Assembly (NCBI GenBank): GCA_963700285.1
Contig: CAVOXA010000010.1
Span: forward strand, 192,001-256,000
DNA: 64,000 bases
From: an uncultured Chloroflexia bacterium
Lineage (GTDB): Bacteria; Chloroflexota; Anaerolineae; JAAYZQ01
Reading direction: 5' to 3'
Under the pieces are notes generated by a model. The model was not told the DNA's origin. It did not search any database and worked only from the letters and a program-made list of their open reading frames with translations. The translations under genes were made by a program, and so were the position numbers. Every line of letters starts with the position of its first letter. The first letter of the stretch is position 1. Positions 23,639 through 47,886 of the stretch are shown here, piece after piece.

Positions 23639-24462
23639 CTACCAATCCTCCAGGGGCGGCGCGCCGGGGAAGACCAGCATCTGCTGCAGGGACTCCTCCA
23701 GACTCTCTGTGCCCTGGGCTGCAGCCTCGAGTAGCTGTCGGGCTTGCTCTTTGCTCAAGCCAGCGACCTGCTGAGGCTGGTTGCCGGCCTGTTCCTTCTG
23801 CTCCTGATCCTGCGGCTGACCATCCTGTTGCTGGTCTGCTGCTGATCCTGGTTCTGCTGGTCCTGCTGATCCTGGTTCTGCTGGTCCTGCTGATCCTGGT
23901 TCTGCTGATCTTGCTGATCCTGGTTCTGCTGGTCCTGCTGATCCTGGTTCTGCTGATCTTGCTGATCCTGGTTCTCTTGATCCTGTTGTTCCTGGTCTTG
24001 CTGATCCTGTTGCTCTTGTTGCTGTTCCTGCAGTTTCCGCAACGCCAGTTCCAGGTTCTGCTTGGCTTCCAGATCGTCAGGCTTCAGACGCAACGCCTCT
24101 TTGTAGACCTCGATGGCCATCTCGTACTGCTCGGTCTGGAAGAAAGTGTTGCCCAGGTTGTACAGGCTGTTTTGGTCCAGATCAGGCTGGCTTTCTTCGC
24201 CCAGTAGGGCCTGTTCGATCTCCTGTTGAGCCTGCTCATAGTCCTCCAGCCGGTAGTGGCTGTTGGCCGCGTTGTAGTGTGGCTCAGCCAGTTCGGGCGA
24301 TTCCCCCGCGGCCTGCTGATAGGCCACCAGAGAACCTGTGTAATCCTGATTCGCAAACGCTTCGTTGCCGTCGTTGTTCAGCCTCTCAGCCGACTGACCG
24401 CAACTGGCCAGGGCCAGCACCAGCAGCAACAGAGTCGGCGCGAGTACAATCAGCTTCTTCAT
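23639..24462 (-). CDS. batC: BatC-like TPR lipoprotein with Q/D/N-rich linker (frameshift near 23835)
   Basis: Lipobox LASC, YNLGN TPR, AKQNLELAL, QDQQNQ repeats; an alternate frame ends ...PLEDW* at 23639. Confidence 0.8.
23841..24030. repeat. Coding tandem 24-bp repeats (QDQQNQDQ-type) in batC
   Basis: Tandem CTGATCCTGGTTCTGCTG(G/A)TC(C/T)TG units. Confidence 0.85.
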
Positions 24463-24464
24463 CT

Positions 24465-25542
24465 TTATCCCTCCCCTTCTATTGACCGCTGGCCGCCGAC
24501 CATCGCTCGTGCATGGCCGCGCGCCTTCTGAGCTACCTTGGCCACGATGCGATCCGGGATCAACTCGATGGCGATCATGAGAGCCAGCGCCGCCAGCAGG
24601 AATGGCTGGAATCGTTCGATCCCCAGGATTTCAAGTTGGCTGGACAGCTCGGCCTTTTGTAGCATGTTCAGTTCTTCAACAAACGCAGCCAGCTCACTGC
24701 CATCCGCGCTGGCCCGAAAGTACCGGCCCCCGCCGACCTCGGCAATCTGCTGCAGTGTGGCCTCGTCGAGCTTGGAGAGAACCACTTCGCCCTGCTGGTC
24801 CTGCTTGTAGCCAATGATCTGACCCCGGGCGTCGTATTCTGGGATCGGCTCGCCCTGCGGCGATCCAAAACCAATGGCGTAGAGCATGATGCCCTGTTCG
24901 GCTGCCGCTTCTGCCATGGCCAGCGCATCGCCGCCGTGATCCTCGCCATCGGTGATCAACACGATCACCTTCTGGCTGGTCCGCGACATGTCAAAGCCGG
25001 CCATGGCCGTGCGGATGGCGTCACCGATGGCGGTACCGGGCCTCGAAATCACCTCCGGCCGGGCGTTGTCCAGGAAGGTCAGGGCCGTGCCATAGTCGGA
25101 GGTCAGCGGGAACTGGACAAAGCTGGCTCCCGAAAAGAGGACCAGGCCGATCTCGTCGCCGCCCAGCCGCGTCATCAGGTCGGCAATCTCCATCTTGGCC
25201 CGGCTCAGGCGGTCGGGCTTGATGTCTTGGGCCAACATGCTCTTGGACACGTCCAGGGCAACCATCACCTCGATGCCCTCCTGCTCGACCTCCTGGATCA
25301 CCGTGCCCCACATGCGGCCGGGCCAGCGAGATGAGCAGCAATGCCAGGACGACGAGCCACAGGCCATCCCGCCAGCGGCGGCCGCGCCAGTTGACCGTGT
25401 TGCTCAGGCGCTGCACCAGCGCCGGATCTCCCAGCCGGCCGAGATCCCTCTTGCGCCGCCGGGCCGCCCACACCAGAAAGAGACCCATCAGCGGCAGTAG
25501 TGTCAACAATCCGTACAAGAAAACCGGTTGTGCGAAAGTCAT
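24465..25542 (-). CDS. batB: BatB vWA domain protein (frameshift near 25315)
   Basis: MTFAQP...LARP then ALDVSKSMLAQD MIDAS motif, PLTSD and ITDGED. Confidence 0.85.
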
Positions 25543-25645
25543 AGTTACCCATCCTTTTCCGTCTTGCTCAGAGCATCGTGTTGCGTGATTCGTGGTCCGT
25601 GACCTGTGGACATGTTGGGCGTCACACGCACCACGTGCCACGTAC

Positions 25646-26655
25646 CTACGGCAGTTTCCTAAACAGCGTTTTCCGCAGGAACGCCTCGCTCACGACGAGC
25701 CCCAGGGCAGGCAAAAGCAGCCAGCCCATCAGTTCCTGGTAGCGGGTAAAACGTTCTACCTCTATCTGAGATTTCTCCAGGCTGTCGATCTCGTCATAGA
25801 TCTGCTTTCAGTCCCGCTGTATCCTCCGCCCGGAAGTAGCGACCGCCGGTGGCAGCGGCAATCTCTTGCAGCGTGGCCTCGTCTAACTGGCTTTCCTGAT
25901 AAGTGATCTGCTGCCGGCCAAAAGCGTCTACTATGGGGACCGGTACCTGTCCAGGCCGTCCCATGCCGATGGTATAGACCTTGATCCCCAACACCTCGGC
26001 CGCTTGCGCCGCCGTCAAGGGATCGATCTCGCCGGCGTTGTTGACGCCATCGGTCAGCAGGATGACGACTTTGCTCTTGGCATCCGAGTCCTTGAGCATG
26101 TTGCCAGCGTTGGCCAGCCCCATGCCGATGGCTGTGCCATCGTCGATGCCCAGGTCGGTGGCCAGCTTGCTGCGATCCAGCAGCCGGATCAGCACGTTGT
26201 GGTCGGTCGTGGGCGGGCTCTGGCTAAAGGCGTCGCTGGCAAAGACCACCAGGCCGATGGCGTCGTAGGGACGTCCCTGCACAAAGTCGGCGATGACATC
26301 CTTGGCCGCCTCCAGCCGGTTCTGCGGCTCAAAGTCGAGCGAGGCCATGCTGCCCGAGATGTCCAGTGCCAGGGCAATGTCTACGCCCTCGCCCTTGATG
26401 ATCTCGCGGGCCTGCCCCGTCTGCGGCCGGGCGACGGCGATGACGATCAAGGCCATGGCCAGGATCCGCAGCGCGGTCAGAGTGGGGCGCAGGGCAATGC
26501 GCCACGAACGAGTAGGCTTGGCCGCCAGCTTGACGTCGGCGTAGCGCAGGCCCGAAGGCCGCGACCACTTTCTGGCCAGCAGAGGCCAGGCTGCCAAGAC
26601 AGGTAGCAAGCAGCAACAGACTGAGAAGCCATGGTGATTCGAAACGAAAGATCAT
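25646..26655 (-). CDS. batA: BatA vWA domain protein (frameshifts near 26606 and 25810)
   Basis: MIFRFESPWLL, ARPQ, DISGSM, GTAIG, LTDGVNN, TGGRYFRA; alternate frame ends FRKLP*. Confidence 0.85.
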
Positions 26656-26659
26656 GAGT

Positions 26660-27696
26660 CTAACTCCTATTCCCAGATTGGTAGCTGAGCCGGCGTGTTG
26701 GCACAGGAGCGGCCGGAGGCTGCTCCTCAGTCGCAGCCTCAAGCTCTGGCCTGGGCCTGGTCAAGTCTACCAGCGAGCGAGCCTCGACCGTCGCCTGGCT
26801 GGCCGTTTCCACGTCCGGAATGAACTTGGCAAACTTGACCAGGTCAGCTGTCCATAAACAGGTCCAGAAAGCGCCGGGTGTGATCCGGGGCAAGGTCCGA
26901 CTGCCGCAGAATGGGCTTCAGCTCGGTCGTGGTCCGATCAAGAACACGCAGATGGAACTGATCCGCCAGATAGGTCCGCAGACAATCGGTTACCAGGGTA
27001 TAGTACTCCTTGGCGCGTCCCTGTTCCAGCAGGCCCAGCCCTTCTATGCGTGCCAACTCGTCGTAGGCCACCTGCCAGGGCGGGCGATTGTCTACGGCAG
27101 GGGCCAGGCCAAAGGGCTTGCCCTGCCAGCGGCGGTAGGCCCACCAGCCCCCCACGGCTGCGGCTGCTGCTACGAGCAGTCCGCCTGCGATCCAGGGCCA
27201 TACCGGCGGTACGGCCAGCCCCGCTTGTGGCTTGATGTCCCTTAGCTCCGTATCATCCTCGGCCAGCGTCGGGTTCACGGTCAGCCGGGCGGACGGGACC
27301 ACCTCTTCGGTCACCTGCCCGGCGCCGTCGCTGATGGTCAGCGGCAGTTCGGGCGTCTGGAAATCGCCCAGGTTGAACAGGGTGACCTCGATGATCTGGC
27401 TGTGTCGTTTCCGTACCATCGTCGTTGGCTACAGTGGCGGCCTGGGATTGGCTCCGTACCTCAAACTCGCCCCACATCTGCTCCAGTTTGGGGATGATGA
27501 CCTGGTAGCCCGCCGGATGCTTCACCTCCAGCGTCAACTGGACGGGGTCGCCCACGGCCAGCTCGCCCCTGTCAGGCGTCAGTGTCGCCTGCACCCCGTC
27601 GTCAGCTTGGGCCTGCGTGACGACCATGAGCGTGAGGGTGAAGAGGAGGAACCAGAAGGCTAGCCGTCTTACGTCTATTCTAACCATTCGAATCAT
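26660..27696 (-). CDS. Bat-operon membrane protein (DUF4381-like; frameshifts near 27400 and 26855)
   Basis: Fragments VGDPVQLTL, LRDIKP, TM, LDRTTTE and ADLVKFAK in successive frames. Confidence 0.72.
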
Positions 27697-27779
27697 TCCT
27701 TTCTACGGTTCACGGATCAGGGACTGGGCAAGTGGGGCCGCGAGCCCTCGGACTGCCAGAGCCCAGGTTCGCGAGTTCC

Positions 27780-28670
27780 CTAATGCCTAATCCGCTTGTT
27801 GCGCTTCTGAAAAAAGATGGTCAGCGCCTTGGCATAGTCCTGGTCGGTCTGGATCTTGACGCGGTCGACGCCCGCGTTTGCCAGGGTCTTTTGCTTGACA
27901 GCCTCGAACTGCCCAGTACGCCGGGCAAAATCGCTGCCGCCAGGCTGGGTCACTCGTGTCCAGCCACACCAGCTCGCCTGATTCGGCATCCTCCAGGGCC
28001 AGCATGACCCACGTCGGCGATCTCGGACTCCATGCGGGTCATGCAGGTCAACGGCGATCAGGTCGTGCCTGCGGTTTGTCATGAAAAGGGGCTTGCTATA
28101 GCGGTCTGGGTCATCCATAAAGTCCGAAACCAGAAAGATGATGCTCCGGCGTTTGAGTATCTGGTTGATGCTGTCCAGCGCCAGCTTGATGTCGGTACCA
28201 TTGCCCTCTGGCTCAAAGGCCAGCAGCTCGCGGATCAGGCGCAGCACGTGGCTGCGCCCCTTGCGCGGCGGGATATACAGTTCCACCCTGTCGGTAAAGA
28301 TCAACAGCCCGACTTTGTCCTTGTTGTTCGTGGCCGAGAAGGACAGCACCGATGCCAGCTCGGCTGCCAACTCTCGCTTGAACACGCCTTGCGAGGCAAA
28401 GTCGCCCGATCCGCTGGCATCAACCACCAACATGACGGTCAGCTCACGTTCCTCGACATACTCTTTGACAAAGGGCTGTCCCATCCGGGCGGTAACGTTC
28501 CAATCGATGGTCCGTACCTCGTCGCCGGGCTGGTAGGGCCGTACTTCGTCAAATTCCATGCCCCTTCCCTTAAAGACAGAGTGATACTCACCGGCGAAAC
28601 TGTCATTGACCAGCCGTCGCGTTCGGATCTCGATGTGACGGATTTTGCTCATCAGTTCGGTTGTTAGCAT
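27780..28670 (-). CDS. DUF58 protein (MoxR-associated)
   Basis: FKGRGMEFDEVRPYQPGDEVRTIDWNVTAR and EEREL; short out-of-frame segment near 28030-27930. Confidence 0.9.
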   Translation of the reverse strand: MLTTELMSKIRHIEIRTRRLVNDSFAGEYHSVFKGRGMEFDEVRPYQPGDEVRTIDWNVTARMGQPFVKEYVEERELTVMLVVDASGSGDFASQGVFKRELAAELASVLSFSATNNKDKVGLLIFTDRVELYIPPRKGRSHVLRLIRELLAFEPEGNGTDIKLALDSINQILKRRSIIFLVSDFMDDPDRYSKPLFMTNRRHDLIAVDLHDPHGVRDRRRGSCWPWRMPNQASWCGWTRVTQPGGSDFARRTGQFEAVKQKTLANAGVDRVKIQTDQDYAKALTIFFQKRNKRIRH

Positions 28671-28805
28671 AGTTCACATACTCCAATTGCCTTGATGCGT
28701 ACGGCGTGTTGCGTGGTACGTACTGCGTGGTACGTGTTGCGTGTTGCGTGCTATGCGCGCGTGCCCTCATCGGCACGGGCCACGTTGCACGCATCACGCA
28801 TCACG

Positions 28806-29799
28806 CTACGGTACTTCGGTATAGTCCAGGATCCGCTGTACAATGTCGGCGCTGGCCACATTCTCTGCCTCGGCCTCGTAGCTGACAATCACACGGTGGC
28901 GCAGCACGTCAGGAGCAACCTCTTTGACGTCATCGGGTGTCACAAAGCCGCGGCCTTTGATGAAGGCCTGTGCCCTGGCTGCGAGGATCAGGTTGATGCC
29001 AGCCCGCGGCGAAGCCCCAAAGGCGATAAAGGGCCGCAGATCCGACAGGCCATTGTTGCCCGGGTTGCGGGTGGTCAGCACCAGGTTGAGGACATAGTTC
29101 TTGATCTTGTCGTCCACATAGACCTGCCGTACCATCTCTCTGGCTCGCAGGATCTGGTCTGGGCTGACAACCGGCCTGACTGGCGGCAGCGGCTCACCCG
29201 TCATGCGGTCAATGATCAGGCGCTCCTCGTTGGGCTTGGGATAGCCAACGATTACCTTGAGCATAAAGCGATCCACCTGTGCTTCCGGCAGGGGATAGGT
29301 GCCTTCCTGCTCGATGGGGTTCTGCGTGGCCAGTACCAGGAACAGGTCGTCCATCTGGTAGGTGGTGTTGCCGATGGTGATCTGCCGCTCCTGCATCGCC
29401 TCCAGCAACGCGCTCTGCACTTTGGCCGGCGCGCGGTTGATCTCGTCGGCCAGGACAAAGTTGGCGAACAGCGGGCCCTGGTGGACGGCGAACTCGCCCG
29501 TCTTCATGTTGTACATCTGGGTCCCCACCAGGTCGGCGGGCAGCAGGTCGGGCGTGAACTGGATGCGGGAAAAATCGGCCTGGATGGCCTGGGCCATGGT
29601 CTTGATCAGACAGCGTCTTGGCCAGGCCAGGCACGCCTTCCAGCAGGATGTGGCCGTCGGCCAGCAGCGCGATCAGTACCCGCTCGACCATCGATTCCTG
29701 GCCCACCATCACAGTGTTGACCTCGGCCAGGAGGTCGTGCAGAAAGAGCGCCTCCCTTTCCACCTGTGCATTGAGTTGCCGAATGTTTGCGATATCCAT
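28806..29799 (-). CDS. moxR: MoxR-family AAA+ ATPase (frameshift near 29610)
   Basis: EGVPGLAKT, RIQFTPDLLPAD, DEINRAPAKVQSALLE and QNPIEQEGTYPLPEAQVDRF. Confidence 0.93.
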
Positions 29800-29920
29800 A
29801 GTAACCTCTCCTCTATGCGATTTCAACCAAGTGGGTTGATGGTACTGGGCACAGCATATCATAGAGGAGGATACTGCGTCTTTAACCCAAGTTCAAGGGT
29901 TGCTTAAGAATGCTTAAGGT

Positions 29921-30123
29921 AACCTCCCGCAGGTTATCCATGGTGTGACTTGCCCTCGTCGTGAAACCTGGATAACCACAGGGCGGGCTCTACAACGACA
30001 AACCTGCGGGAGGTTCGGCCGCACGCTCAACCTCCCGCAGGTTCTCCACCGAGTAGCTTGCCCTGGTCGTGAAACCCTGGTTGCCACAGGGCAAGCTCTG
30101 TCACGACAAACCTGCGGGAGTTT
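29921..30123. repeat. Two tandem 95-bp REPIN-like units
   Basis: Units 29921-30015 and 30029-30123, each AACCTCCCGCAGGTT, a 65-nt related spacer, then AACCTGCGGGAG(G/T)TT. Confidence 0.85.
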
Positions 30124-30134
30124 CGGCGGGAGGG

Positions 30135-30163: not shown

Positions 30164-30202
30164 AACCGCTGCGTGCTATGCGAAGTGAAGGAGGAAAAGC
30201 CC

Positions 30203-31153
30203 ATGTCCATCGAACAACTGCCGCTCTTTCCGGGCAACGAGCCCCAAACGGTAACCCAGCGATCCGATCTGAGCGCCGATTCACCCCTCAGCACGGCCAT
30301 GGAGCGCTTCCGCAACCACATGGTCCAGCAGGACTATGCCGATAACACCATCAAATCTTTCCTGGGCGACCTGCGCATCCTTGGCCGCTATCTGAAACAG
30401 GATCTTGCTGTCGGCCAGATCAGCACCAAAAACCTGCTGGCCTACCTCCACTGGCTACAGCACGAACGGGGCAAGCCCTGCAGTCCCAAATCGTACGCCC
30501 GGCGGCTGACCACGCTCAAGGTGTTCTTTGCCTGGCTGGCTCGCCTGGAGGTCATACCGGCCGATCCTGCCGCTGCCCTGGTTCACAAACCGGTCCAGAC
30601 CCCACTGCCCCGCATCCTCTACGACCAGCAGGTGGAGGAGGTACTGGCCCTCACCCAGAGCATGAGGGCCGGCGACACAACTGCCGAAAAGCCCGATCCC
30701 CGGCCCCACCTGCTGGTCACCCTGCTGCTGCATACCGGCATCAAAAAGCAGGAATGCATGGACATCAAGCTGATCCACATTGACGCAGCCAACGTCGCCG
30801 GGCCAGCGGTCCAAATCCGCTACGAAAAACCGCGCATGCAGTACAAAGAAAGACGCCTGCGCCTACCCTCGGGCTGGCCCAGTACGCTGGCCGAATACCG
30901 CAAGGCCTACGAGCCCCAGGAGTACCTTTTTCCCTGCACAGCCCGGAACCTGGAATATGTGCTGACCGACGTCGGCAAGCAGGCCGGCCTGGGCGGCGGC
31001 CTGTCCTTCGAGATGCTGCGCTGGACCTGCGCCGTCCGCGACTACCAGGCCCGCATGGACCCCGATCGCCTGCGGCGCAAGATGGGGCTGTCGCAAATGA
31101 GCTGGAAAGAAACCGAACCCAAGATCATCCGCCTTGCAGAACCGGCACTGTGA
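30203..31153 (+). CDS. Tyrosine recombinase-fold (XerD-like) protein, catalytic residues degenerate
   Basis: SAM-like N domain (NTIKSFLGDL, SYARRLTTLKVFFAWL), LPRIL, LLHTGIKKQE and FEMLRWTCA. Confidence 0.8.
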   Translation: MSIEQLPLFPGNEPQTVTQRSDLSADSPLSTAMERFRNHMVQQDYADNTIKSFLGDLRILGRYLKQDLAVGQISTKNLLAYLHWLQHERGKPCSPKSYARRLTTLKVFFAWLARLEVIPADPAAALVHKPVQTPLPRILYDQQVEEVLALTQSMRAGDTTAEKPDPRPHLLVTLLLHTGIKKQECMDIKLIHIDAANVAGPAVQIRYEKPRMQYKERRLRLPSGWPSTLAEYRKAYEPQEYLFPCTARNLEYVLTDVGKQAGLGGGLSFEMLRWTCAVRDYQARMDPDRLRRKMGLSQMSWKETEPKIIRLAEPAL

Positions 31154-31157
31154 GCGC

Positions 31158-31191
31158 AACCTCCCGCAGGTTTCCGAACCTGCGGGAGGTT
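31158..31191. repeat. REP-like palindrome
   Basis: AACCTCCCGCAGGTT-TCCG-AACCTGCGGGAGGTT, perfect 15-bp arms. Confidence 0.9.
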
Positions 31192-31213
31192 CATCTGTCC
31201 AAGGAGGCCAACC

Positions 31214-31792
31214 ATGCCCTACCGTGGTGACGTATTCGCCCCAGACCACTACTACCACGTCTACAATCGGGCCGTGGACGGAGCCCTGCTCTTTTTCAAC
31301 CCCGGCAACTATGAGCACTGCTTGCGCCTCGTCAAACGCTACCAGGAAAAGTATGGCGCCGCCGTGATCGCCTATTGCCTCATGCCCAACCACTACCACT
31401 TTCTCCTCCGCCAGGAGACCGATGTCCCGCTCTCCAGGTTCATCAACGTGCTCTTTAATGCCTACGTGCAAGCCGTGAACCGGCAGCAGGGGCGCAAAGG
31501 AACGCTATTCGAGGGACGCTTCAAGCACATCTGGGTCGACCGTGAGGAGTACCTGGTCCACCTCTGTCGCTATATCCACCTCAACCCATTGAAGGCAGGT
31601 CTTGTGCCACGATTGGAGGACTGGGCCTACTCCAACTACCTGGAATGGCTCGGCCAGCGGGCCGGGACGCTAAAGGACGAGGCTTTCATCCACGATCGAT
31701 TCCCGACACCCGGGTCATACCAGCAGTTCGTGGCCGATTATGCCGGAGAGCTACAGGCCCGCGACCTTGTCGAAAAGTATCTCTGGGACTAG
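31214..31792 (+). mobile_element. REP-associated tyrosine transposase (RAYT/TnpA-REP, Y1 HUH family)
   Basis: YYHVYNR, CLMPNHYH (HUH), LFEGRFK, YIHLNP and WAYSNY; flanked on both sides by REP palindromes. Confidence 0.9.
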
Positions 31793-31797
31793 CCCTC

Positions 31798-31832
31798 AAC
31801 CTCCCGCAGGTTTCGGAAACCTGCGGGAGGTT
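31798..31832. repeat. REP-like palindrome
   Basis: AACCTCCCGCAGGTT-TCGGA-AACCTGCGGGAGGTT. Confidence 0.9.
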
Positions 31833-31853
31833 GGGCAGCACGAGGCACAGACT

Positions 31854-34800
31854 ATGAGAAACCAAACCCGATTGCTCCTCCTGGCTCTATTCTTCAGCCT
31901 GCTGGCCGTCCCTGCCCTGGCCCAATCCACAGCGCCGCCAGAGCCAACCCCGCCTCCGGCCATTATGGTCATCCAGCCCACGCCAGTCCCATCGCCCGCA
32001 CCCCAGGGGAACCTGCTCCAGCAGGTATGGGTGAAGAATAGGGCAGAGATCCTCCTGGGCTTTATCGCGGCCGTCGTCGCCGGTATTCTGGTCGGCGTAT
32101 TCTTGCGGCAGATCGCCGAGACGCTGGCCGGCTGGGCCAGCCGCCTTTTTCACTTTCTCTTTGACCGCTTTGCCAGCGCTCCCCTCTTGAGCCTGCGCTA
32201 CGAGAAACGCTACCGGGAGACGCTGTCAGCCGCTCTCCAGACCCTGGCCTCGTCCAACATCGTGGACCGGGACGTACGCTTGGACCAGGTCTACGTGCCG
32301 GTACAGCTCACGGAAGAGACCCAGCCTGGGGGAAGCACGACCTTCGAGGACCGCTTCCAGTGGGACGAGGACCGCCGCCGCCGGCAGCGCCAGCGTGCCG
32401 TCGAGCCCTGGGATGCGGTGCGCCGCTTCCAGCGGCTGGTGGTCCTGGGTGAGCCGGGCGCAGGCAAGACCACTTACCTGCACCACCTGGCCTTCATGTG
32501 CGCCCAGCGGAAGCGGCTGCCTGACTACACGCCCATCTTTGTCGAGCTGCGGAACCTGGTGGGTGCTGAGCGACTGGAGGACGCGCTGCCCGCCGAGTTC
32601 GCCCGGCGCAGTTTCCCCAACGCCAGGCCGTTCATCGAGCGCCGCCTGGCGGATGGGCGCTGCCTGATCCTGCTGGACGGCCTGGACGAAGTGGAGAGTG
32701 AGGCCCACCACCAAGAGGTGGTGTCGCTGGTAAAGGACTTTGCCGACCGGCACGCCCGCGATCCGGAACGCGACAGTGGCCCGCGCAACATCATCGTCGT
32801 CTCCTGCCGCACCTACAGCTACGAGCACGGGCCCCAACTCGCCGGCTTTACCCGGACCATGGTCATGGACTTTGACGACCCGGCCATCGAGCGCTTTGCC
32901 CACAACTGGTTCCGAGATGGGGACCTGCGCCCCCTGGCCGGCGAACTGCTGGCCGTCCTGGACAGCAACCGGCGCTTCAAGGAGCTGGCCCGCAACCCGC
33001 TGCTGTTGTTGCTCATCGTCTACCACTATGAGCGGGAGCGCAACCTGCCCGACCTGCGCGCCGAACTCTACCGCCACTGTATCCGAACCCGCATCACGCG
33101 CTGGAACGTGATGCGCGGCACACACCGCGGCCGTTTCGGCGAGACCGACAAGTGGCGCATGCTGCGTGATCTGGCCCTGGATCTCTACCGCCGGGAGGAG
33201 CAGGGCCTCATCGACCGGGAGACGCTGTTGGCCTGGCTCGACGTCTTTGCCGCTGGCCTCCGCCTGCCCGAGGGCATGAATCCGGCTGACCTGCTGGACG
33301 AGGTGGTCCGCACCAGCGGCCTTGTCCAGGAACGCGCCATCGAGCGCTATGGCTTTTCGCACCTGACCCTCCAGGAGTATTTTGCCGCCGAGGGGGTGGA
33401 CCGGCTGGGGGCGCAGGCGGGGGCCGCGCTCCTGGGCGAGCGCCTGCCCGACCCCCGCTGGCAGGAGGTGATCCTGCTCTACTGCGGCCTGGCCGACGAC
33501 GCCGCACCGCTGCTGCGGCGCGTCTTGCAGCGGACCGGGGACGATGGCCCCGACGCCTGGCTCCAGGCGGCGCGCTGCCTGGCCGAGGGCGCCCGTGTTA
33601 CCGACGACGAGGTCTGCCGCGAGGCGGCCCGCGGCCTGGTGGGCCTCCTGCGCGAGGTTGAGGCTGGCGATCAGGAAGCGCTCACCGCCGAGGAAAGCGG
33701 CGAGGTCGTCGCCTCCCTGCAGTCCTTTGCCGCCGCCGAGCTGCCCGGCCACGTGTCCACCCTGCTGGAGAGCCAGCAGCCCGGCGACGCCCTGCTGGCC
33801 GCCCGCCTGCTGCCGGAGGGGGCGAACGCCGAGCTGCGGGCTGAGGTCAGCCGCCGCATGGCCGCCCTGGCCAGCGGCGGGGAGACGGTCGAGCGGCGCG
33901 TGGCTTCTGCCGCCCTGGGCTGGATTGCCGGGGCAGACGCCAGCACGGTCGCCATCCTGCGGGCGGGTCTGGCCGACCCTGACCCCGCCGCCCGGGCCGA
34001 GGCCGCCCGCGCCCTGGGCCGCCTCGGGGCCAGCGACGAGCAGACCATCGCCGGCCTGCTGCAGATCTATGCCGGCGACCCGCATGACCCAGCCCGCCAC
34101 GCAGCCCTGGAGGCCCTGCTGGTCTTGGGTCGCGCCGCCGACCTGGGCCTGGTCCCGGTTCCCGCCGGCGAATTCCTAATGGGCAGCACGGAGGACGACC
34201 GTCAGGCCGGCGACAACGAGAAACCCCAACACCGCCTCTACCTGCCCGCCTACTATATCGACCGTACCCCTGTGACCAACGCCCAGTACCAGCGTTTCAT
34301 CGAGGCCGGGGGCTATGCCAGCGCCGCCTACTGGGCCGAGGCCATTGAAGCCAGGCACTGGAAGGACGGGGCCTATGTGGAGCATCAGGCATTCGGTGGT
34401 GAGCCCCGCAGGCAGCCAGTATACTGGGAAGAGCCCAAGTGGAATGCCAACGACCAGCCGGTGGTGGGCGTCTCCTGGTACGAGGCCCTGGCCTACGCCC
34501 GCTGGGCCGGCAAGCGCCTGCCCAGCGAGGCCGAGTGGGAAAAGGCCGCCCGCTGGGACCTCGAGGCCGGCCGCAGCCGGGCCTACCCCTGGGGTGATAC
34601 CTGGGATCCAGATCGTTGCAACACCGAGGAAGCGGGGGCGGGCCAGACGACGCCAGTTGGGCAGTTTTCGCCCCGGGGCGATAGCCCCTGCGACGCGGCC
34701 GATATGGCTGGCAACGTCTGGGAGTGGTGCAGCACCCGTTGGGGCCCTGCCTACCCCTACGATCCCGACGACGGACGCGAGGACCTGGCAGGCGGTGATG

Positions 34801-34959
34801 ACATTGGACGCATCGTACGCGGCGGTTCCTGGTATAATGACAAATCTCGGGCGCGTTGCGCCTGCCGCAACGGGGACTACCCGCTCGACTGGGTACAACA
34901 TCAGGGGTTTTCGCTGCTGTTGCGCCACGTCTTCTCCATCCCCCGGTTCTGGATCCTGA
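31854..34959 (+). CDS. DGR target: signal peptide + TM + NACHT NTPase + HEAT repeats + FGE-sulfatase/C-type-lectin domain
   Basis: Walker A GEPGAGKTT, Walker B LILLDGLDE, NPLLL, FSHLTLQEYFAA, HEAT repeats (RAEAARALGRLG), FGE motifs RLPSEAEWEKAAR, DMAGNVWEW and RGGSW; removing one G at 34891-34893 gives ...YNIRGFRCC...GS* at 34959 (as read it ends at 34967). Confidence 0.9.
34849..34929 (+). repeat. DGR variable repeat (VR)
   Basis: Aligns with 36578-36657; 10 substitutions, all opposite TR adenines, plus one extra G. Confidence 0.95.
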
Positions 34960-35004
34960 GGTTCTGACGTGCTGGATTCTGATCGCTGGCCTGCTGCGGG
35001 GGGT

Positions 35005-35024
35005 GTGGGGGGCGTGCCCCCCAC
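35005..35024 (+). other. GC-rich hairpin downstream of VR (candidate DGR target-recognition cruciform)
   Basis: GTGGGGGG-CGTG-CCCCCCAC, 8-bp stem and 4-nt loop, about 75 nt after VR; no identical copy after TR. Confidence 0.55.
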
Positions 35025-35039
35025 CCGATCGCCCAGCCG

Positions 35040-35073
35040 AACCTCCCGCAGGTTTCTGAACCTGCGGGAGGTT
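35040..35073. repeat. REP-like palindrome
   Basis: AACCTCCCGCAGGTT-TCTG-AACCTGCGGGAGGTT immediately before the RT start. Confidence 0.9.
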
Positions 35074-35083
35074 GGAGATGCCC

Positions 35084-36193
35084 ATGAAGACCTACAAGAA
35101 TCTCTACCCGCGCATCTGCGCCTTTGAAAACCTGGAAATCGCCTTCCGCAAAGCGCGTCGCGGCAAGCGCCACAAGCCCAACGTCGCCGCCTTCGAGTGT
35201 AACCTGGACCTGGAGCTCCTCGATCTGCAGGACGACCTCCTCTCTGGAACCTACAGGCCCGGCGGCTACCGCCACTTTACCATCTATGAAGGCAAGCCGC
35301 GCCGCATCAGCGCCGCCCCTTTCCGCGACCGGGTGGTGCACCACGCTCTGTGCAATGTCATCGAGCCGATCTGGGAAGCCAGGTTCGTCCACGACTCGTA
35401 CGCCTGCCGCGCCGGCAAGGGCACCCACGCGGCCCTGGACCGCTGTACCCACTTTGCCCGGCGCTATCCCTACGTCCTGCAATGCGACGTCGTCCAGTTC
35501 TTTCCCTCGGTGGACCACGCCATCCTGCGTGACCTTCTGGCCCGCCACATCGCCTGCCGTTCCACCCTGAAGCTCATCGACCGGATCCTTGCCAGCGGCA
35601 CCGGCATACACAGCAAGAGCTACGAAATGCAGTGGTTCCCCGGCGACGACCTACTGGCTGCGACACGGCCCCGGGGCCTGCCCATCGGCAACCAGACCTC
35701 CCAGTTCTGGGCCAACGTCTACCTCCACGAACTGGACCGCTTTGTCAAGCAGACCCTGCACTGCCAGCGCCAGAGCCCTGCCTACCTGCGCTACTGCGAC
35801 GATTTCCTGCTCTTTGCCGGCGACAAGCCTACGCTGCACCGCTGGCGCCGAGAGATTGAGGGCTTTATGGCCACGCTACGTCTCAAAATCCATCCCCACA
35901 GGACCGTCGTCTACCCGGTCAAGAACGGCATCCCCTTTCTGGGTTTCAAGATCTATCCTGGTCACCGCCGGCTCAGGCGCTGCAACGGCGTACGCTTCCA
36001 GCGCCGCTTCCGAGCTCTGCTAGACTGCTACGCCACAGGCGAGATCGACCGAGAGCAGCTCGATGCCTCCGTCCGCGGCTGGGTGGCCCACACCTCCCAC
36101 GGCGACACCTGGGGATTGCGGCGCAGCCTACTCTCTCGCCACAACCTCCCGCAGGTTCGGAAACCTGCGGGAGGTTTGGATGGGCCACGATGA
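35084..36193 (+). CDS. DGR reverse transcriptase
   Basis: KPRRISAAPFRDRVVHHAL, SYACRAGKGTH, CDVVQFFPSVDH, GLPIGNQTSQFWANVYL, YCDD and FLGF; no maturase or endonuclease tail. Confidence 0.95.
   Translation: MKTYKNLYPRICAFENLEIAFRKARRGKRHKPNVAAFECNLDLELLDLQDDLLSGTYRPGGYRHFTIYEGKPRRISAAPFRDRVVHHALCNVIEPIWEARFVHDSYACRAGKGTHAALDRCTHFARRYPYVLQCDVVQFFPSVDHAILRDLLARHIACRSTLKLIDRILASGTGIHSKSYEMQWFPGDDLLAATRPRGLPIGNQTSQFWANVYLHELDRFVKQTLHCQRQSPAYLRYCDDFLLFAGDKPTLHRWRREIEGFMATLRLKIHPHRTVVYPVKNGIPFLGFKIYPGHRRLRRCNGVRFQRRFRALLDCYATGEIDREQLDASVRGWVAHTSHGDTWGLRRSLLSRHNLPQVRKPAGGLDGPR
36143..36176. repeat. REP-like palindrome inside the RT 3' end
   Basis: AACCTCCCGCAGGTT-CGGA-AACCTGCGGGAGGTT, translated as NLPQVRKPAGG. 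Confidence 0.9.
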
Positions 36194-36522
36194 AACAATC
36201 ACCCATCTTTGTCAAGCACTACGATCTTATGGCCTGGCTCATTCCTCGCACCCTGGCCTTTCCCAAGAGCCAGCGCGGGGTGCTGGCCCGCCAGGTGCAG
36301 AAGGAGCTATTTCACATCTATGAGATGCTGGTTGACGCGGGCATGGCCAATGATCCTTTGCCCCACCTTGCCGAGGTCGACAAGGGCCTCATCCGGCTGC
36401 GAACCTATCTGCGGCTGTGCCGCGACCTCAAGCTGCTGTCCATCGGCCAATACGAGCACGTTTCGCGCCTTGCAGCCGAGGTGGGAAGACTCTTGGGAGG
36501 TTGGATGCGATCCTGTGGATAG
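36190..36522 (+). CDS. avd: DGR accessory variability determinant (Avd, four-helix bundle)
   Basis: SPIFVKHYDLMAWL...FPKSQRGVLA...LRTYLRL...YEH...EVGRLLGGW; 110 aa, ATGA overlap with RT. Confidence 0.92.
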   Translation: MKQSPIFVKHYDLMAWLIPRTLAFPKSQRGVLARQVQKELFHIYEMLVDAGMANDPLPHLAEVDKGLIRLRTYLRLCRDLKLLSIGQYEHVSRLAAEVGRLLGGWMRSCG

Positions 36523-36523
36523 A

Positions 36524-36557
36524 AACCTCCCGCAGGTTTCCGAACCTGCGGGAGGTT
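36524..36557. repeat. REP-like palindrome between avd and TR
   Basis: AACCTCCCGCAGGTT-TCCG-AACCTGCGGGAGGTT. Confidence 0.9.
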
Positions 36558-36577
36558 CACCTTGGGGCCAGGCCGGA

Positions 36578-36657
36578 GGGCGCGTTGCGCCTACCGCAAC
36601 AGGAACAACCCGAACAACAGGAACAACAACAGGGGTTTTCGCTGCTGTTGCGCCACG
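36578..36657 (+). ncRNA. DGR template repeat (TR)
   Basis: GGGCGCGTTGCGCCTACCGCAACAGGAACAACCCGAACAACAGGAACAACAACAGGGGTTTTCGCTGCTGTTGCGCCACG, an AAC-rich copy of VR. Confidence 0.95.
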
Positions 36658-36878
36658 CCTCCACCAGCATGGGTCAGAAACAGCCTCTGGTTCACGGACC
36701 CGGGGCCGGTGCCCGCGGGCTGCAGCTGCTACGCTGCAGTCCGATGGAGAAGACGATGCGGCCTGTCCCTGGCCACCTCCCCACACCCCAGCGGTGTGGG
36801 GGACGGCCGAATAGAGAATAGCCCCGCCTGGCCCAGTAGGCCCGCTCCGACATGCCGGGCGGGGCGCCTCGTCCACCG

Positions 36879-36958
36879 ACCTCCCGCAGGTACGTCCGGC
36901 TGTCCGGAGCCGGACGTACCTACCTGCGGGAGGTTTCCAATTTTGAACCTGCGGGAGG
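36879..36958. repeat. Extended REP-like hairpin plus an extra half-site closing the DGR locus
   Basis: ACCTCCCGCAGGTACGTCCGGCT...AGCCGGACGTACCTACCTGCGGGAGGT followed by AACCTGCGGGAGG. Confidence 0.8.
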
Positions 36959-37003
36959 GTATGGTATACTCAGGCCGCACTGACAAGATGGGAGGGTACA
37001 ACG

Positions 37004-37294
37004 ATGGGCTTGGCTACAATGCGAGACATTTCCCTGCTGTGGCTGATCTTCCTCGGCCTGGTTTCCGTACTACCCTTTGCGGTGCTCTTTTATTTTATGA
37101 TCAGAGGTATGACCCGGCTGCGACAGTTGGCCGTGCAATACCTGCCCATTGCCCAGGAAAAGACCCGGTTCCTCGCCTTCAAGACGGAGGAGATCAGCCA
37201 TAAGGTCGCTGGCCCCATTATCAGCGTAGAGGCCAAAGCTGCGCAGGTGAACGGCATGACGAGAGCAGTCCTTTCTAGGAGGAAGAGTATATGA
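37004..37294 (+). CDS. Small membrane protein, unknown function
   Basis: RBS GGGAGG, N-terminal TM, coupled to the next ORF. Confidence 0.6.
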   Translation: MGLATMRDISLLWLIFLGLVSVLPFAVLFYFMIRGMTRLRQLAVQYLPIAQEKTRFLAFKTEEISHKVAGPIISVEAKAAQVNGMTRAVLSRRKSI

Positions 37295-37509
37295 ATTCCA
37301 AACAGCAAAGTATCCTCGTCGGAGCTATCCTCGGCGCCGCATTGGGCGCACTGGGGGGCTTTCTTTTCGGCCGTGGCCTGGACGAGTCCGGTGAAGAAGA
37401 ATCCCTGGCAGTCGCAGCCAGGTCCGTGCAAGCCAGTGATGCCATCAAGATCATCATCGCCATCATGGGGGTGTTGCGCGGCATTTCTTCCCTGCGCGGA
37501 GCGGGCTAG
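37291..37509 (+). CDS. Small membrane protein, unknown function
   Basis: RBS AGGAGG, Gly-rich TM GAILGAALGALGG. Confidence 0.6.
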   Translation: MNSKQQSILVGAILGAALGALGGFLFGRGLDESGEEESLAVAARSVQASDAIKIIIAIMGVLRGISSLRGAG

Positions 37510-42361: not shown

Positions 42362-42475
42362 GATCCTCCCGCAGGTCTGGCCATGTTCTGGTACCCAGCC
42401 GCATGGCAGAATCAGCCAGTAACGGGGCAGAAGTCAGGCCGAACCTGCGGGAGGATCGCCCACTGCTCCCGCAGG
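42362..42475. repeat. Dispersed REPIN-like copy
   Basis: GATCCTCCCGCAGG, about 66 nt, AACCTGCGGGAGGATC, plus a third arm CTCCCGCAGG. Confidence 0.7.
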
Positions 42476-46026: not shown

Positions 46027-47886
46027 ATGGGTATGAGATTGAAGTATGGCTGGTTGATCGTACTGGTGGTCGTCGCATTGTTGACAGCAGCCTGCGGGCC
46101 GCAGGAAGATGTGCCAACGTTGGGCGAACAGGCCACCGCCGAGCAGTCAGAGGCTGCTGGGGTTGGTGAAACCCCCAAAGCAGCCGCTGCGGAGGATCCG
46201 ACAGCGGAACCCGCCGAAAGCTCGGCATCTGCCGCAGAGCTGCCCGTCGATGAGGGTGACTGGCATGTACTGGGCTCGCCGGACGCGCCCATCACCATTG
46301 TCGAGTACTCGGACTTTCAGTGACCGTTCTGTGCCAGTTACGTCCGTGAGACGTTCCCACAGATACTAGAGTCCTACATCGGCAGCGGTGATGTCCGCTA
46401 CGTATTCCGCAATTTTCCGCTATTCTCCATCCATCCCCAGGCTGCAAAGGCCGCCGAAGCAGCCGAGTGCGCCGGTGAGCAAGGGGCATTCTGGGAGATG
46501 CATGACGTACTCTTTGATGGCCAGGACCAATGGTCCGGCAGTCCAGATGCAGAAGATGTCTTCAAAGGGATGGCGAACGGCCTGGATTTGGACCAGGCCC
46601 AGTTTGATGCCTGTCTGGACGAGGGCAATTATGCCGACAAGGTGATCGCTGACTACCAGGAGGGCGCTGCCCTGGGTATCACCGGCACACCGGCCTTCCG
46701 AGTCAATGGCGCGGCCATGTCGGGAGCCCAGCCCTTCTCCGCATTCCAGCAGCAGATCGACTATTTTCTGGCGGGAGGTGAAGCTCCCAGCCTGGAGGTG
46801 GACTCTGACAGCTATCGCAGCATGGGACGGGCGGACGCGCCGGTGGTAGTCACCGAATTCTCGGACTACCAGTGACCGGCCTGTTCATCGATCGCCCGTG
46901 AGGTGATCCCAGACCTTATCGAACAGTATGTCGATACCGGCAAAGCTCGTTACGTATACCGCGAGTTTCCATTGACTTCCATCCACCCTGTCGCGCAAAA
47001 AGCGTCGGAGGCGGCCATATGCGCCGGCCAGCAGGGAAAGTATTGGGAGATGAACGAGCACCTTTTTGCCACCCAGGCAGAGTGGTCACAGGCAGCCGAT
47101 CCGGCCCAGCAATTCAGCACCTATGCCACAGAATTGGAATTGGATACCGATGCCTTTGACGAGTGCCTGGCTTCCGGCGAGGGAGCAATCGTAGTCCAGG
47201 GGGACCTGCTGACCGGCGAATCGCTGGGTGTGAACGCCACCCCCTACTTTTTTATCAATGACATGCCCATCCGTGGCGGCCTGCCCATTGAGGCGCTAGG
47301 CCGCATCATCGACTATGCGGCCGCAGGCGGTCCCCCACCCGAGATTGTGCCCAGCGGTCCCGACTGGCACATGCGAGGAAACCCGCAAACGGCGGGGGCC
47401 ATCACCGTGGCCTTTGTGGACTATGCCAGCCCCGAGTCGGCAGAACACGCCACAGAGGTATTGCCACAGTTGGTGGAAGAGTACATCGACAGCGGCCAGT
47501 TGGTCTATGTCCTGCATCCCTGGACAGAGGGAGAGGACAGCCCTGGTACCCTGGCAGCCATCGCCGCCGAGTGCGCAGGCCAGCAGGACAAGGGTTGGGA
47601 GATGCATGACAAGATCTTGGCCGATCAGGAGGCATGGACCACAGCCAGCGATCCAGGCTCTCACTTTGCTGACTATGCCAAAGCGCTGGATGTGGACTCG
47701 GCCGGGTTCGAGGCTTGCCTGGAATCAGCAGGGGCCAAGCTGCGGGCGCAGGCCGGAAGCGTGGTCGGTGCGCTCTATGGCGTGCCAGGCGCACCTATCT
47801 TTCTATTCAACAATGGCCAGGGGCAAGAGGGATCACCCAGCTTTGACGAGTTCAAAGCCGTGATCGACTCGATTCTCGGCCCTTAG
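46027..47886 (+). CDS. Triple DsbA/thioredoxin-fold lipoprotein with two in-frame UGA codons (probable selenocysteines)
   Basis: ORFs 46027..46323, 46498..46875 and 46903..47886 share one frame; SDFQ-UGA-PFC (46321) and SDYQ-UGA-PAC (46873) occupy the first Cys of CxxC; third domain reads DYASPES; lipobox LTAAC. Confidence 0.85.
46340..46354 (+). promoter_or_regulatory. Candidate bacterial SECIS hairpin 1
   Basis: ACGTC-CGTGA-GACGT; loop starts 22 nt after UGA 46321-46323. Confidence 0.55.
46890..46908 (+). promoter_or_regulatory. Candidate bacterial SECIS hairpin 2
   Basis: GATCGCC-CGTGA-GGTGATC; same loop, also starting 22 nt after UGA 46873-46875. Confidence 0.6.

Follow-up and report, generated by a model that had tools for sequence, protein, structure and literature searches.

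The locus described here raises the question of whether a bacterium can repeatedly rewrite the sensing end of an NLR-like protein, and what kind of sensor this would produce. It lies in a window of 64,000 nt (G000:C10:192001-256000) in the 7.05-Mb, 22-contig assembly G000 of an uncultured Chloroflexia bacterium; feature coordinates below are window positions. The plus strand carries a diversity-generating retroelement (DGR), in which the target gene, a reverse transcriptase (RT) gene, avd and a template repeat (TR) follow one another, and the target encodes a NACHT protein with a predicted membrane anchor. This order, already given in a preliminary description drawn from the sequence, was confirmed at 31854-34967, 35084-36193, 36190-36522 and 36578-36657. 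The parts of the retroelement are as follows.

31854..34967, plus strand: DGR target gene encoding 1037 aa as assembled; the stop in the conserved frame is at 34957-34959
34849..34929, plus strand: variable repeat (VR), from the TR/VR alignment
34891..34893, plus strand: GGG run with an extra, frame-shifting base, which is not in the sister-genome locus L029
35005..35024, no strand: G/C-rich hairpin 3' of the VR, present in the related locus L118 and absent in L029
35084..36193, plus strand: DGR reverse transcriptase, 369 aa, RVT_1, IGNQTSQ and YCDD motifs
36190..36522, plus strand: Avd accessory protein (bAvd), NF033474 at 89 bits, over the cut-off
36578..36657, plus strand: TR of 80 nt, about 49 nt shorter at its 5' side than those of 14 other DGRs

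The element is a complete cellular DGR that was active in the past and repeatedly rewrote approximately 12 codons of a lectin-fold domain. In DGRs, the TR RNA is copied with errors at adenines and the copy then replaces the VR (mutagenic retrohoming). The alignment of TR and VR contained 10 substitutions and one extra base, and recomputation agreed with the earlier count in placing 10/10 substitutions at TR adenines (21 A in 80 nt; chance 2e-7); A36577 on the TR side, opposite C34848 on the VR side, is possibly an 11th change. The variable codons of the TR were 8 AAC, 3 AGG and 1 TAC, allowing 15^8 x 27 x 4 = 2.8e11 protein variants, so that the diversity of about 3e11 stated previously also held. 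The 21st TR adenine, located in the last codon (ACG), was unchanged in both the window and the L029 alleles.

L029, which is collinear with the window over 18 kb at about 90% identity, provided an independent allele; this locus and the genome G001 of the same genus were counted as one observation. Its TR was identical to that of the window over 80 nt, and 13/13 changes of its VR from the TR were at A. The two VRs differed from each other at 17/21 TR-A positions and at 0/59 others, against a background of 260 differences in 2990 positions (8.7%) in the rest of the target gene. The comparison of the VRs gave a nonsynonymous rate (dN) of 0.81 and a synonymous rate (dS) of 0 over 7 codons. The dN/dS values between the window and L029 were 0.09 for NACHT, 0.12 for RT, 0.21 for Avd, 0.06 for the transposase gene described below, 0.20 for the transmembrane (TM) region and 0.23 for the core of the C-type lectin (CLec) domain. 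Adenine-specific rewriting was thus seen in two lineages, with RT, Avd and NACHT under purifying selection. This evidence comes from comparisons between genomes; among the sequencing runs listed for the source, none contained half of the stretch, and no RNA data set containing it was listed.

The residue spectra across the target family pointed the same way. In alignment A1, consisting of 31 of the 37 best homologs after exclusion of six fragments, the columns facing AGG codons held R, W or G (column 1013 in 30/31, column 1007 in 27/31), and those facing AAC codons were hypervariable. The homologs P0007 and P0123 differed at 9 of 1076 residues, eight of them within the last 40, and other protein pairs compared in this way showed weaker C-terminal enrichment. 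Together with the L029 allele, these DGR-type spectra strengthened the original assignment to DGRs.

The machinery agreed with this assignment. The RT carries IGNQTSQ at residue 202 and YCDD at 237, fitting the DGR-type definition (I/V/L)GxxxSQ and YxDD (PMC3521204), and the accessory protein expected of a DGR was identified as Avd by the NF033474 match. The VR lies at the C-terminus of a CLec-fold domain, as judged from sequence by the PF03781 and TvpA matches. The VR and TR sequences diverge 3' of 34929 and 36657, respectively, and hairpins follow the VR at 35005-35024 and 35040-35073; compared with the hairpins of phage DGRs (PMC3240598), they stand at a greater distance from the VR and have a different loop. 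The best RT matches, at 46-50%, were to cyanobacterial, Ideonella and Prosthecochloris plasmid RTs, compared with 36-39% for eight listed phage RTs, levels that fit a cellular lineage. A search of G000 for further VRs, proposed as a check in the preliminary description, found no other sequence matching the TR at all non-A positions; the nearest, at C10:1333457 and C10:1337755, had about five non-A mismatches, mostly toward the 3' end.

The preliminary description listed the extra G in the VR but overlooked its consequence. The base shifts the frame at codon 1013-1014, and the last 24 or so codons are out of frame as assembled, with the G-F-R-C strand, which closes the fold, and the stop at 34957 in another frame. 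L029 has no indel at this site, and 31/31 other A1 proteins keep the G[FLVM]R frame to their ends; the extra G is therefore either an assembly artefact or a one-off RT slip. It is probably a consensus artefact. The assembly appeared prone to insertions: in housekeeping genes over the 18 kb shared with L029, a codon model assigned four insertions to the window and four to L029, the others being uncalled, and frame changes across G000 were +1 at 3.6% of positions and -1 at 1.2%, a ratio of 3 to 1. Of the nine CLec ends listed in G000, three others were also frameshifted, these being in error-rich regions. A real RT slip, by which the strain would hold a frameshifted and probably inactive allele that later retrohoming could overwrite, is plausible but less so. 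In its favour, frameshifting TR/VR indels were reported in 11/372 DGRs, with 74% of indels adjoining AAC (PMC5758913), the reading frame is intact in the RT and elsewhere in the 3-kb target, and GTAC 6-mers showed no surplus of frame changes; the in-frame state of L029 and of the 31 aligned family proteins tells against it, as does the insertion-prone assembly. A methylation motif as the cause was rejected for lack of enrichment, as GGGTAC gave 4/277 against the 3.6% background (low resolution).

The target protein was then resolved into the following parts.

31854..31922, plus strand: predicted Sec signal peptide, aa 1-23, A-L-A|Q, hydropathy 2.14, conserved site
31923..32009, plus strand: Pro/Thr-rich stalk, predicted to lie outside, with a short hydrophobic motif that is conserved
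32049..32105, plus strand: predicted TM helix, aa 66-84, mean hydropathy 2.91
32106..32177, plus strand: juxtamembrane segment of aa 85-108, conserved and amphipathic (97th percentile of hydrophobic moment)
32433..32918, plus strand: NACHT NTPase core, Walker A at aa 199 and Walker B at aa 271, PF05729 at 42 bits, over the cut-off
33861..34118, plus strand: HEAT repeats, aa 670-755, PF13646 at 3.5e-10
34149..34959, plus strand: domain of FGE-sulfatase-like C-type lectin fold (FGE, formylglycine-generating enzyme) holding the VR, PF03781 at 5.7e-58

Pfam placed NACHT at aa 194-355, HEAT_2 at 670-755 and FGE-sulfatase at 766-1019. A family search with residues 1-760 as the query recovered 37 proteins above a clear score gap, from Chloroflexi or Anaerolinea wherever a taxon was stated. 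Both Walker motifs were present in 35/37, and the assignment to NACHT/STAND proteins is indicated by the PF05729 score and by invariant columns in Walker A/B and the downstream helical and winged-helix motifs. The family profile matched TvpA (2y3c) at 6.5e-16 and NLRP3 chains weakly, at 3e-5. The family is rare, occurring in 3/401 genomes of the class (DGR-type RTs were found in 13/61 genomes), and a metagenome scan with A2 gave distant NACHTs at 79/80 loci, L037 (2.6 kb) being the sole family member. L118 holds a family member followed by an RT that is 79% identical to the window RT and cut at residue 253, and P0132 is a deletion product in which the N-terminal module is fused to a DGR RT C-terminus, indicating that target and RT travel together.

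The signal peptide and the single TM segment are predicted to place NACHT, HEAT and CLec in the cytoplasm, and the topology proposed earlier held up as a prediction from hydropathy, the conserved A-x-A|Q site and positive-inside charge. The TM segment was present in 32/37 homologs, the remaining five starting downstream of it; A23 and Q24 of the signal-peptide site were each found in 26/28 aligned rows, and the TM residue G81 in 29/30. There are 7 K/R in the 40 residues after the TM segment and two before it. From hydropathy and charge around this segment, the C-terminus is predicted to be cytoplasmic with or without leader cleavage. The stalk motif at aa 33-44 (window ~31950-31985) is hydrophobic and kept in most family members despite variable stalk length. 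An adhesin displaying the lectin domain on the cell surface, as TvpA or LdtA do, would account for the signal peptide and for the fold shared with TvpA; it is nevertheless very improbable, as the strong second hydrophobic segment followed by the K/R cluster predicts stop-transfer, and an intact ATPase under purifying selection requires a cytoplasmic location. An enzyme of the formylglycine-generating family, as the source names and the strong PF03781 match would have it, is close to untenable: the cysteine pair after the RGGS motif, which is catalytic in FGE, is not kept in the alignment with 6muj/2q17, the diversified site is hypervariable, and all NCBIfam enzyme models scored far below their cut-offs.

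The preliminary description had also found no enzymatic effector besides the anchor, and searches of the N-terminus in Pfam, NCBIfam, PADLOC and the ESM atlas at 0.9 likewise returned no known N-terminal effector domain; the best atlas score, for residues 25-190, was 0.87, below this threshold. The N-terminal module matched 27 clusters among 1.84 billion, of which nine were scanned: five had NACHT, four had no Pfam family, and none had an enzymatic effector. The juxtamembrane segment was constrained, with L102 and A107 invariant in 32/32 and H100 and F103 in 31/32, and its mean entropy was 1.34 versus 1.32 for the NTPase core.

STAND proteins switch through ligand-induced oligomerisation. Our tentative reading, to which as a full chain we give somewhat less than an even chance, is that the target is a one-gene sensor of invaders, with the variable lectin domain as its tip, NACHT as the switch, and the TM and amphipathic helices as the effector. 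The variable site would bind something foreign, a phage protein close to the membrane being the most likely candidate, and this binding would trigger nucleotide exchange and oligomerisation. Oligomerisation would cluster the TM segments and their conserved amphipathic helices. These are the sole effector candidate, and once clustered they may permeabilise the membrane or arrest growth. Experimentally studied bacterial STANDs sense phage proteins (PMC13581612; 10.1101/2022.07.19.500537).

The absence of an effector gene within the cassette also fits a defence sensor whose TM segment is only a tether, surveying the membrane for proteins injected by phages or competitors and signalling to an effector encoded elsewhere. 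Other NACHT/FGE loci exist in G000, and many NACHT-FGS proteins recruit effectors via adaptor domains (PMC8195603). We consider this tether a possible but doubtful alternative, since the target N-terminus has no known adaptor domain and the juxtamembrane helix is conserved like the NTPase core, beyond the need of a plain tether, although a partner-binding site would look alike.

Several points weigh against the invader sensor with a self-encoded effector. A cleaved signal peptide with a single TM segment would make an unusual pore former, the topology prediction rests on hydropathy and charge, and the allele as assembled is frameshifted. The cassette is kept at about 90% identity in both sister genomes and is thus not very short-lived. 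STAND-linked CLec domains are experimentally uncharacterised according to PMC10907252. PADLOC returned no system match for the target, with a weak HEAT match alone, and 198/589 STAND clades are classed as defensive (PMC13581612). The last two points, most clades not being so classed, also speak for non-defence signalling, in which a diversified membrane-bound STAND receptor would tune cell-cell, developmental or envelope responses, as does a signal-transduction proposal for cyanobacterial DGR targets cited in PMC10907252. Such signalling appears unlikely: the patchy presence of the family, an insertion site shared with toxin-antitoxin genes and the frequent decay of such loci (see below) fit conflict genes better, and the random rewriting of a cytoplasmic binding site would suit a changing foreign ligand.

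The DGR itself is part of a larger cassette, which spans 31158 to ~36960 (5.8 kb). The core genes were correctly delimited in the preliminary description, but a REP-associated tyrosine transposase (RAYT) gene and the bounding palindromes of repetitive extragenic palindrome (REP) type had been left out.

30173..31153, plus strand: XerC/D-like recombinase gene, core, by Pfam/NCBIfam; left flank, outside the insertion
31158..31191, no strand: REP-like palindrome marking where the cassette begins on the left, 5 nt past the xer stop
31214..31792, plus strand: RAYT-like gene, Pfam Y1_Tnp at 9e-10, NF047646 at 74 bits with a cut-off of 80, dN/dS 0.06
31798..31832, no strand: REP-like palindrome at the RAYT/target junction, by repeat analysis
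35040..35073, no strand: REP-like palindrome 5' of the RT gene, by repeat analysis
36143..36176, no strand: REP-like palindrome within the RT 3' end, by repeat analysis
36524..36557, no strand: REP-like palindrome at the hairpin position 5' of the TR leader, by comparison with other DGRs
36878..36960, no strand: REP palindrome and half-site, right boundary of the cassette, by repeat and empty-site comparison
37004..37509, plus strand: two small open reading frames (ORFs), right flank, directly 3' of xer in empty-site relatives

The cassette is inserted after the core xer gene, which was present in 19/23 genomes of the taxonomic family. G001 has the cassette at the xer site, and G005, G015, G018 and G021 have the empty site, xer being followed within ~135 nt by the genes that start at 37004 in the window. 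In G012 (L137:806-1415), of another genus, the same xer-downstream site holds a PemK/MazF toxin with an RHH antitoxin, which was counted for the sensor role, and in 12 of the 18 other xer genomes the neighbours are different ones or the contig ends. A join of 31134 to 37020 also occurs in contigs from runs X1 and X2, the evidence on one side being weak (29 letters at 80% likeness). The core xer and the empty site in relatives thus identify the region from 31158 to ~36960 as a palindrome-bounded insertion. Of the features of a mobile element, the empty site in relatives and the repeats at both ends are present, and neither a second cassette site nor excision was found, with one copy in G000 and the same site in L029. 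The 5.4 kb of L118, with its family member, contain no such palindrome or RAYT gene.

The palindromes, of 32-34 nt, occur at 31158, 31798, 35040, 36143 and 36524, with the longer form at 36878-36960, and five of the seven short copies in G000 sit within the cassette. In both genomes, that at 36143-36176 contributes to the 3' end of the RT coding sequence. The RAYT/REP assignment is indicated by a Y1 HUH transposase with flanking palindromes that recur in the genome, with the NF047646 score below the cut-off. REPIN-like elements of 92-96 nt, whose ends carry the same palindrome halves and whose interiors vary, were found at 29921-30127 and 42364-42455 and in ~17 copies genome-wide. Three of the ~6 RAYT-like genes of G000 lie less than 1 kb from a NACHT-CLec gene, 1.6% of the genome being within 5 kb of such genes. 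A general RAYT-DGR linkage was unsupported beyond this genus: no NF047646 match was obtained on contigs of other-genus DGR RTs, and tblastn gave weak RAYT matches beside just two other-genus DGR loci, L129 and L131. Among the papers listed by a literature search, no title or abstract start joined DGR and RAYT as one system.

Two further candidates in the surroundings were rejected. The MoxR-vWA (Bat-type) operon lies outside the insertion and within 1.5 kb of xer in this genus only; in the window it runs at 23755-29860 on the minus strand as MoxR-DUF58-BatA/BatB-TPR, contains a Gln-rich tandem repeat (23815-24063) and is interrupted by several frameshifts of +1. A prophage origin was dismissed, as the flanks scanned contained no phage genes. 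Elsewhere in the window, at 46492-47640, three repeat copies at 552-nt spacing are likely a tandem domain in one gene.

G000 contains four decayed loci with NACHT or FGE targets elsewhere, indicating fast turnover. At G000:C1:1725069-1726565 (L001 8900-10600, minus strand), an FGE target is followed by an RT that runs, at a short motif common to both, into the 3' end of its TR; avd and the variable TR part are gone, and the VR also has an additional (+1) base. G000:C14:609900-616600 (L002) holds, by ORF reading, a large caspase-like and NACHT-like target and an RT start joined to the TR middle, followed by a second NTPase-FGE gene in a frameshift-rich region. At G000:C10:1331900-1337900 (L003), two NACHT-CLec genes differ from each other in a VR-like way and are separated by a RAYT gene and a tandem palindrome array, and no RT or TR was found at this locus. 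G000:C10:1495300-1497300 (L006) has a NACHT-CLec gene, an RT cut after ~28 codons at a different palindrome, and an opposite-strand RAYT gene. A further RT at G000:C10:652823-653683, with the top RVT_1 score in the genome and no FGE gene near, is probably of group II intron type. G001 has two further DGRs (L119 and L120), one with two NACHT-like targets, and at L126:9684-10143 the TR stands directly after the VR, before the RT.

The TR of the window was compared with those of 14 other DGRs in the class, which are 111-135 nt long and start at the RGGSW-NNN segment. Two flanking features were used in this comparison.

36563..36574, plus strand: TR leader motif, identical to that of L010
36658..36835, plus strand: TR downstream spacer, alignable with the spacers of the 14 other DGRs

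In both genomes the leader motif is kept and ~49 nt after it are missing. Destruction of the TR 5' end by the REP was rejected, as the leader motif survives between REP and TR, which makes the loss an internal deletion. Family column 995 contains AAC-reachable residues only (31/31), and column 999 has W, G or R in 18/31. From these spectra, ancestral diversification of the first segment is likely; in this genus the segment is now frozen.

A stem of at least 6 bp stands directly 5' of the leader in 11/14 other DGRs (L131 incompletely covered), and in the window this stem is the REP. In the avd-TR spacers of L119, L124, L128, L010 and L123, the pre-leader hairpin region often begins with GTAG, like GTAG-type REPs. 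As L029 lacks the G/C hairpin at 35005-35024, the REP remains as its strong post-VR hairpin. In BPP-1 the stem sequence may vary, whereas loop and position matter (PMC3240598), and co-option of REP hairpins as DGR cis-elements is thus possible by analogy. It is quite unlikely, in our estimate, that all of this forms a self-contained adaptive immune module, in which one gene would combine a hypermutated lectin tip with a NACHT oligomer that opens the membrane through its own TM segment and amphipathic helix, the REP cassette would be moved by its RAYT, and REP hairpins would double as DGR cis-elements, one at the TR leader and one being the sole strong hairpin after the VR in L029.

By every sequence test run, the locus belongs with both the DGRs and the NACHT proteins, and by analogy it may work like anti-phage NLRs (bNACHT/Avs). 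The novelty of a hypermutated NACHT sensor, implied in the preliminary description, did not stand, as the idea was already proposed in PMC10907252, PMC8195603 and 10.1101/2022.07.19.500537, and the combination of signal peptide, TM, NACHT and FGS beside RT and Avd is tabulated in the source data of PMC8195603. New here are the REP/RAYT-bounded insertion after the core xer, the REP interleaving and the TR shortened by ~49 nt.

According to Doré 2024 (PMC10907252), DGRs of clade 5D diversify NACHT-CLec targets, some without known N-terminal domains, for which adaptive sensing was proposed; Chloroflexi are basal members of this clade, and MITE-like repeats replace DGR parts. The cassette resembles DGR 3 and 6 of Thiohalocapsa PB-PSB1 in that clade, which combine NACHT with a DGR-diversified C-terminal CLec, have no known effector in their N-terminal extension, and are accompanied by degenerate sister loci and inverted-repeat elements. 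In contrast to these, it has one target instead of two, lacks a peptidase or adaptor gene next to it, and has HEAT repeats, an 80-nt TR and a RAYT gene within a REP-bounded cassette; the likeness is one of architecture. Kaur 2021 (PMC8195603) proposed adaptive sensing by STAND NTPase-FGS proteins and lists the signal peptide, TM, NACHT and FGS string for Chloroflexi OGO41187.1, Thiothrix OQX03012.1 (followed by RVT and a four-helical protein) and a Methylococcaceae bacterium. The target shares this domain string; section 7 of that paper does not discuss the form with signal peptide and TM, and none of the 12 of 13 supplementary files searched contained a HEAT and FGS string. Kibby 2022 (10.1101/2022.07.19.500537) defined an FGS 'antigen receptor type' of bacterial NACHT, likewise tripartite with one FGS domain proposed to be DGR-diversified, whereas the N-terminal position here is a membrane anchor and not one of the enzymatic effectors or adaptors listed there. 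FGE-type targets such as Treponema TvpA/CLec1 (2y3c; PMC5758913 category b) have the same fold and a C-terminal VR, but TvpA is a surface lipoprotein and the present domain is predicted to be cytoplasmic, behind NACHT. As in RAYT/REP systems (REPtron, REPIN; PMC5581495), a HUH tyrosine transposase is flanked by palindromes with dispersed 92-96 nt forms; the differences are that short palindromes lie at every DGR cassette junction and that the NF047646 score is below the cut-off. FGE sensors are named in the cited passages of PMC13581612, which give no test of them, and related work includes Kaur 2020 (PMC7159879), PMC12875486 and 10.1101/2020.03.09.984088.

Bacterial hypermutation of NLR-like antigen sensors is thus a proposal in print, untested according to PMC10907252, and the present cassette is a compact test case for it: it is 5.8 kb long with a single target and without a partner gene, ~12 codons are variable, the machinery is intact, and ~35 relatives provide natural alleles. 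The REP/RAYT interleaving suggests a route for the arrival and decay of such DGR loci. If the target gene alone gave VR-specific protection against phage, this would demonstrate anticipatory immunity in bacteria, together with a single-pass membrane effector.

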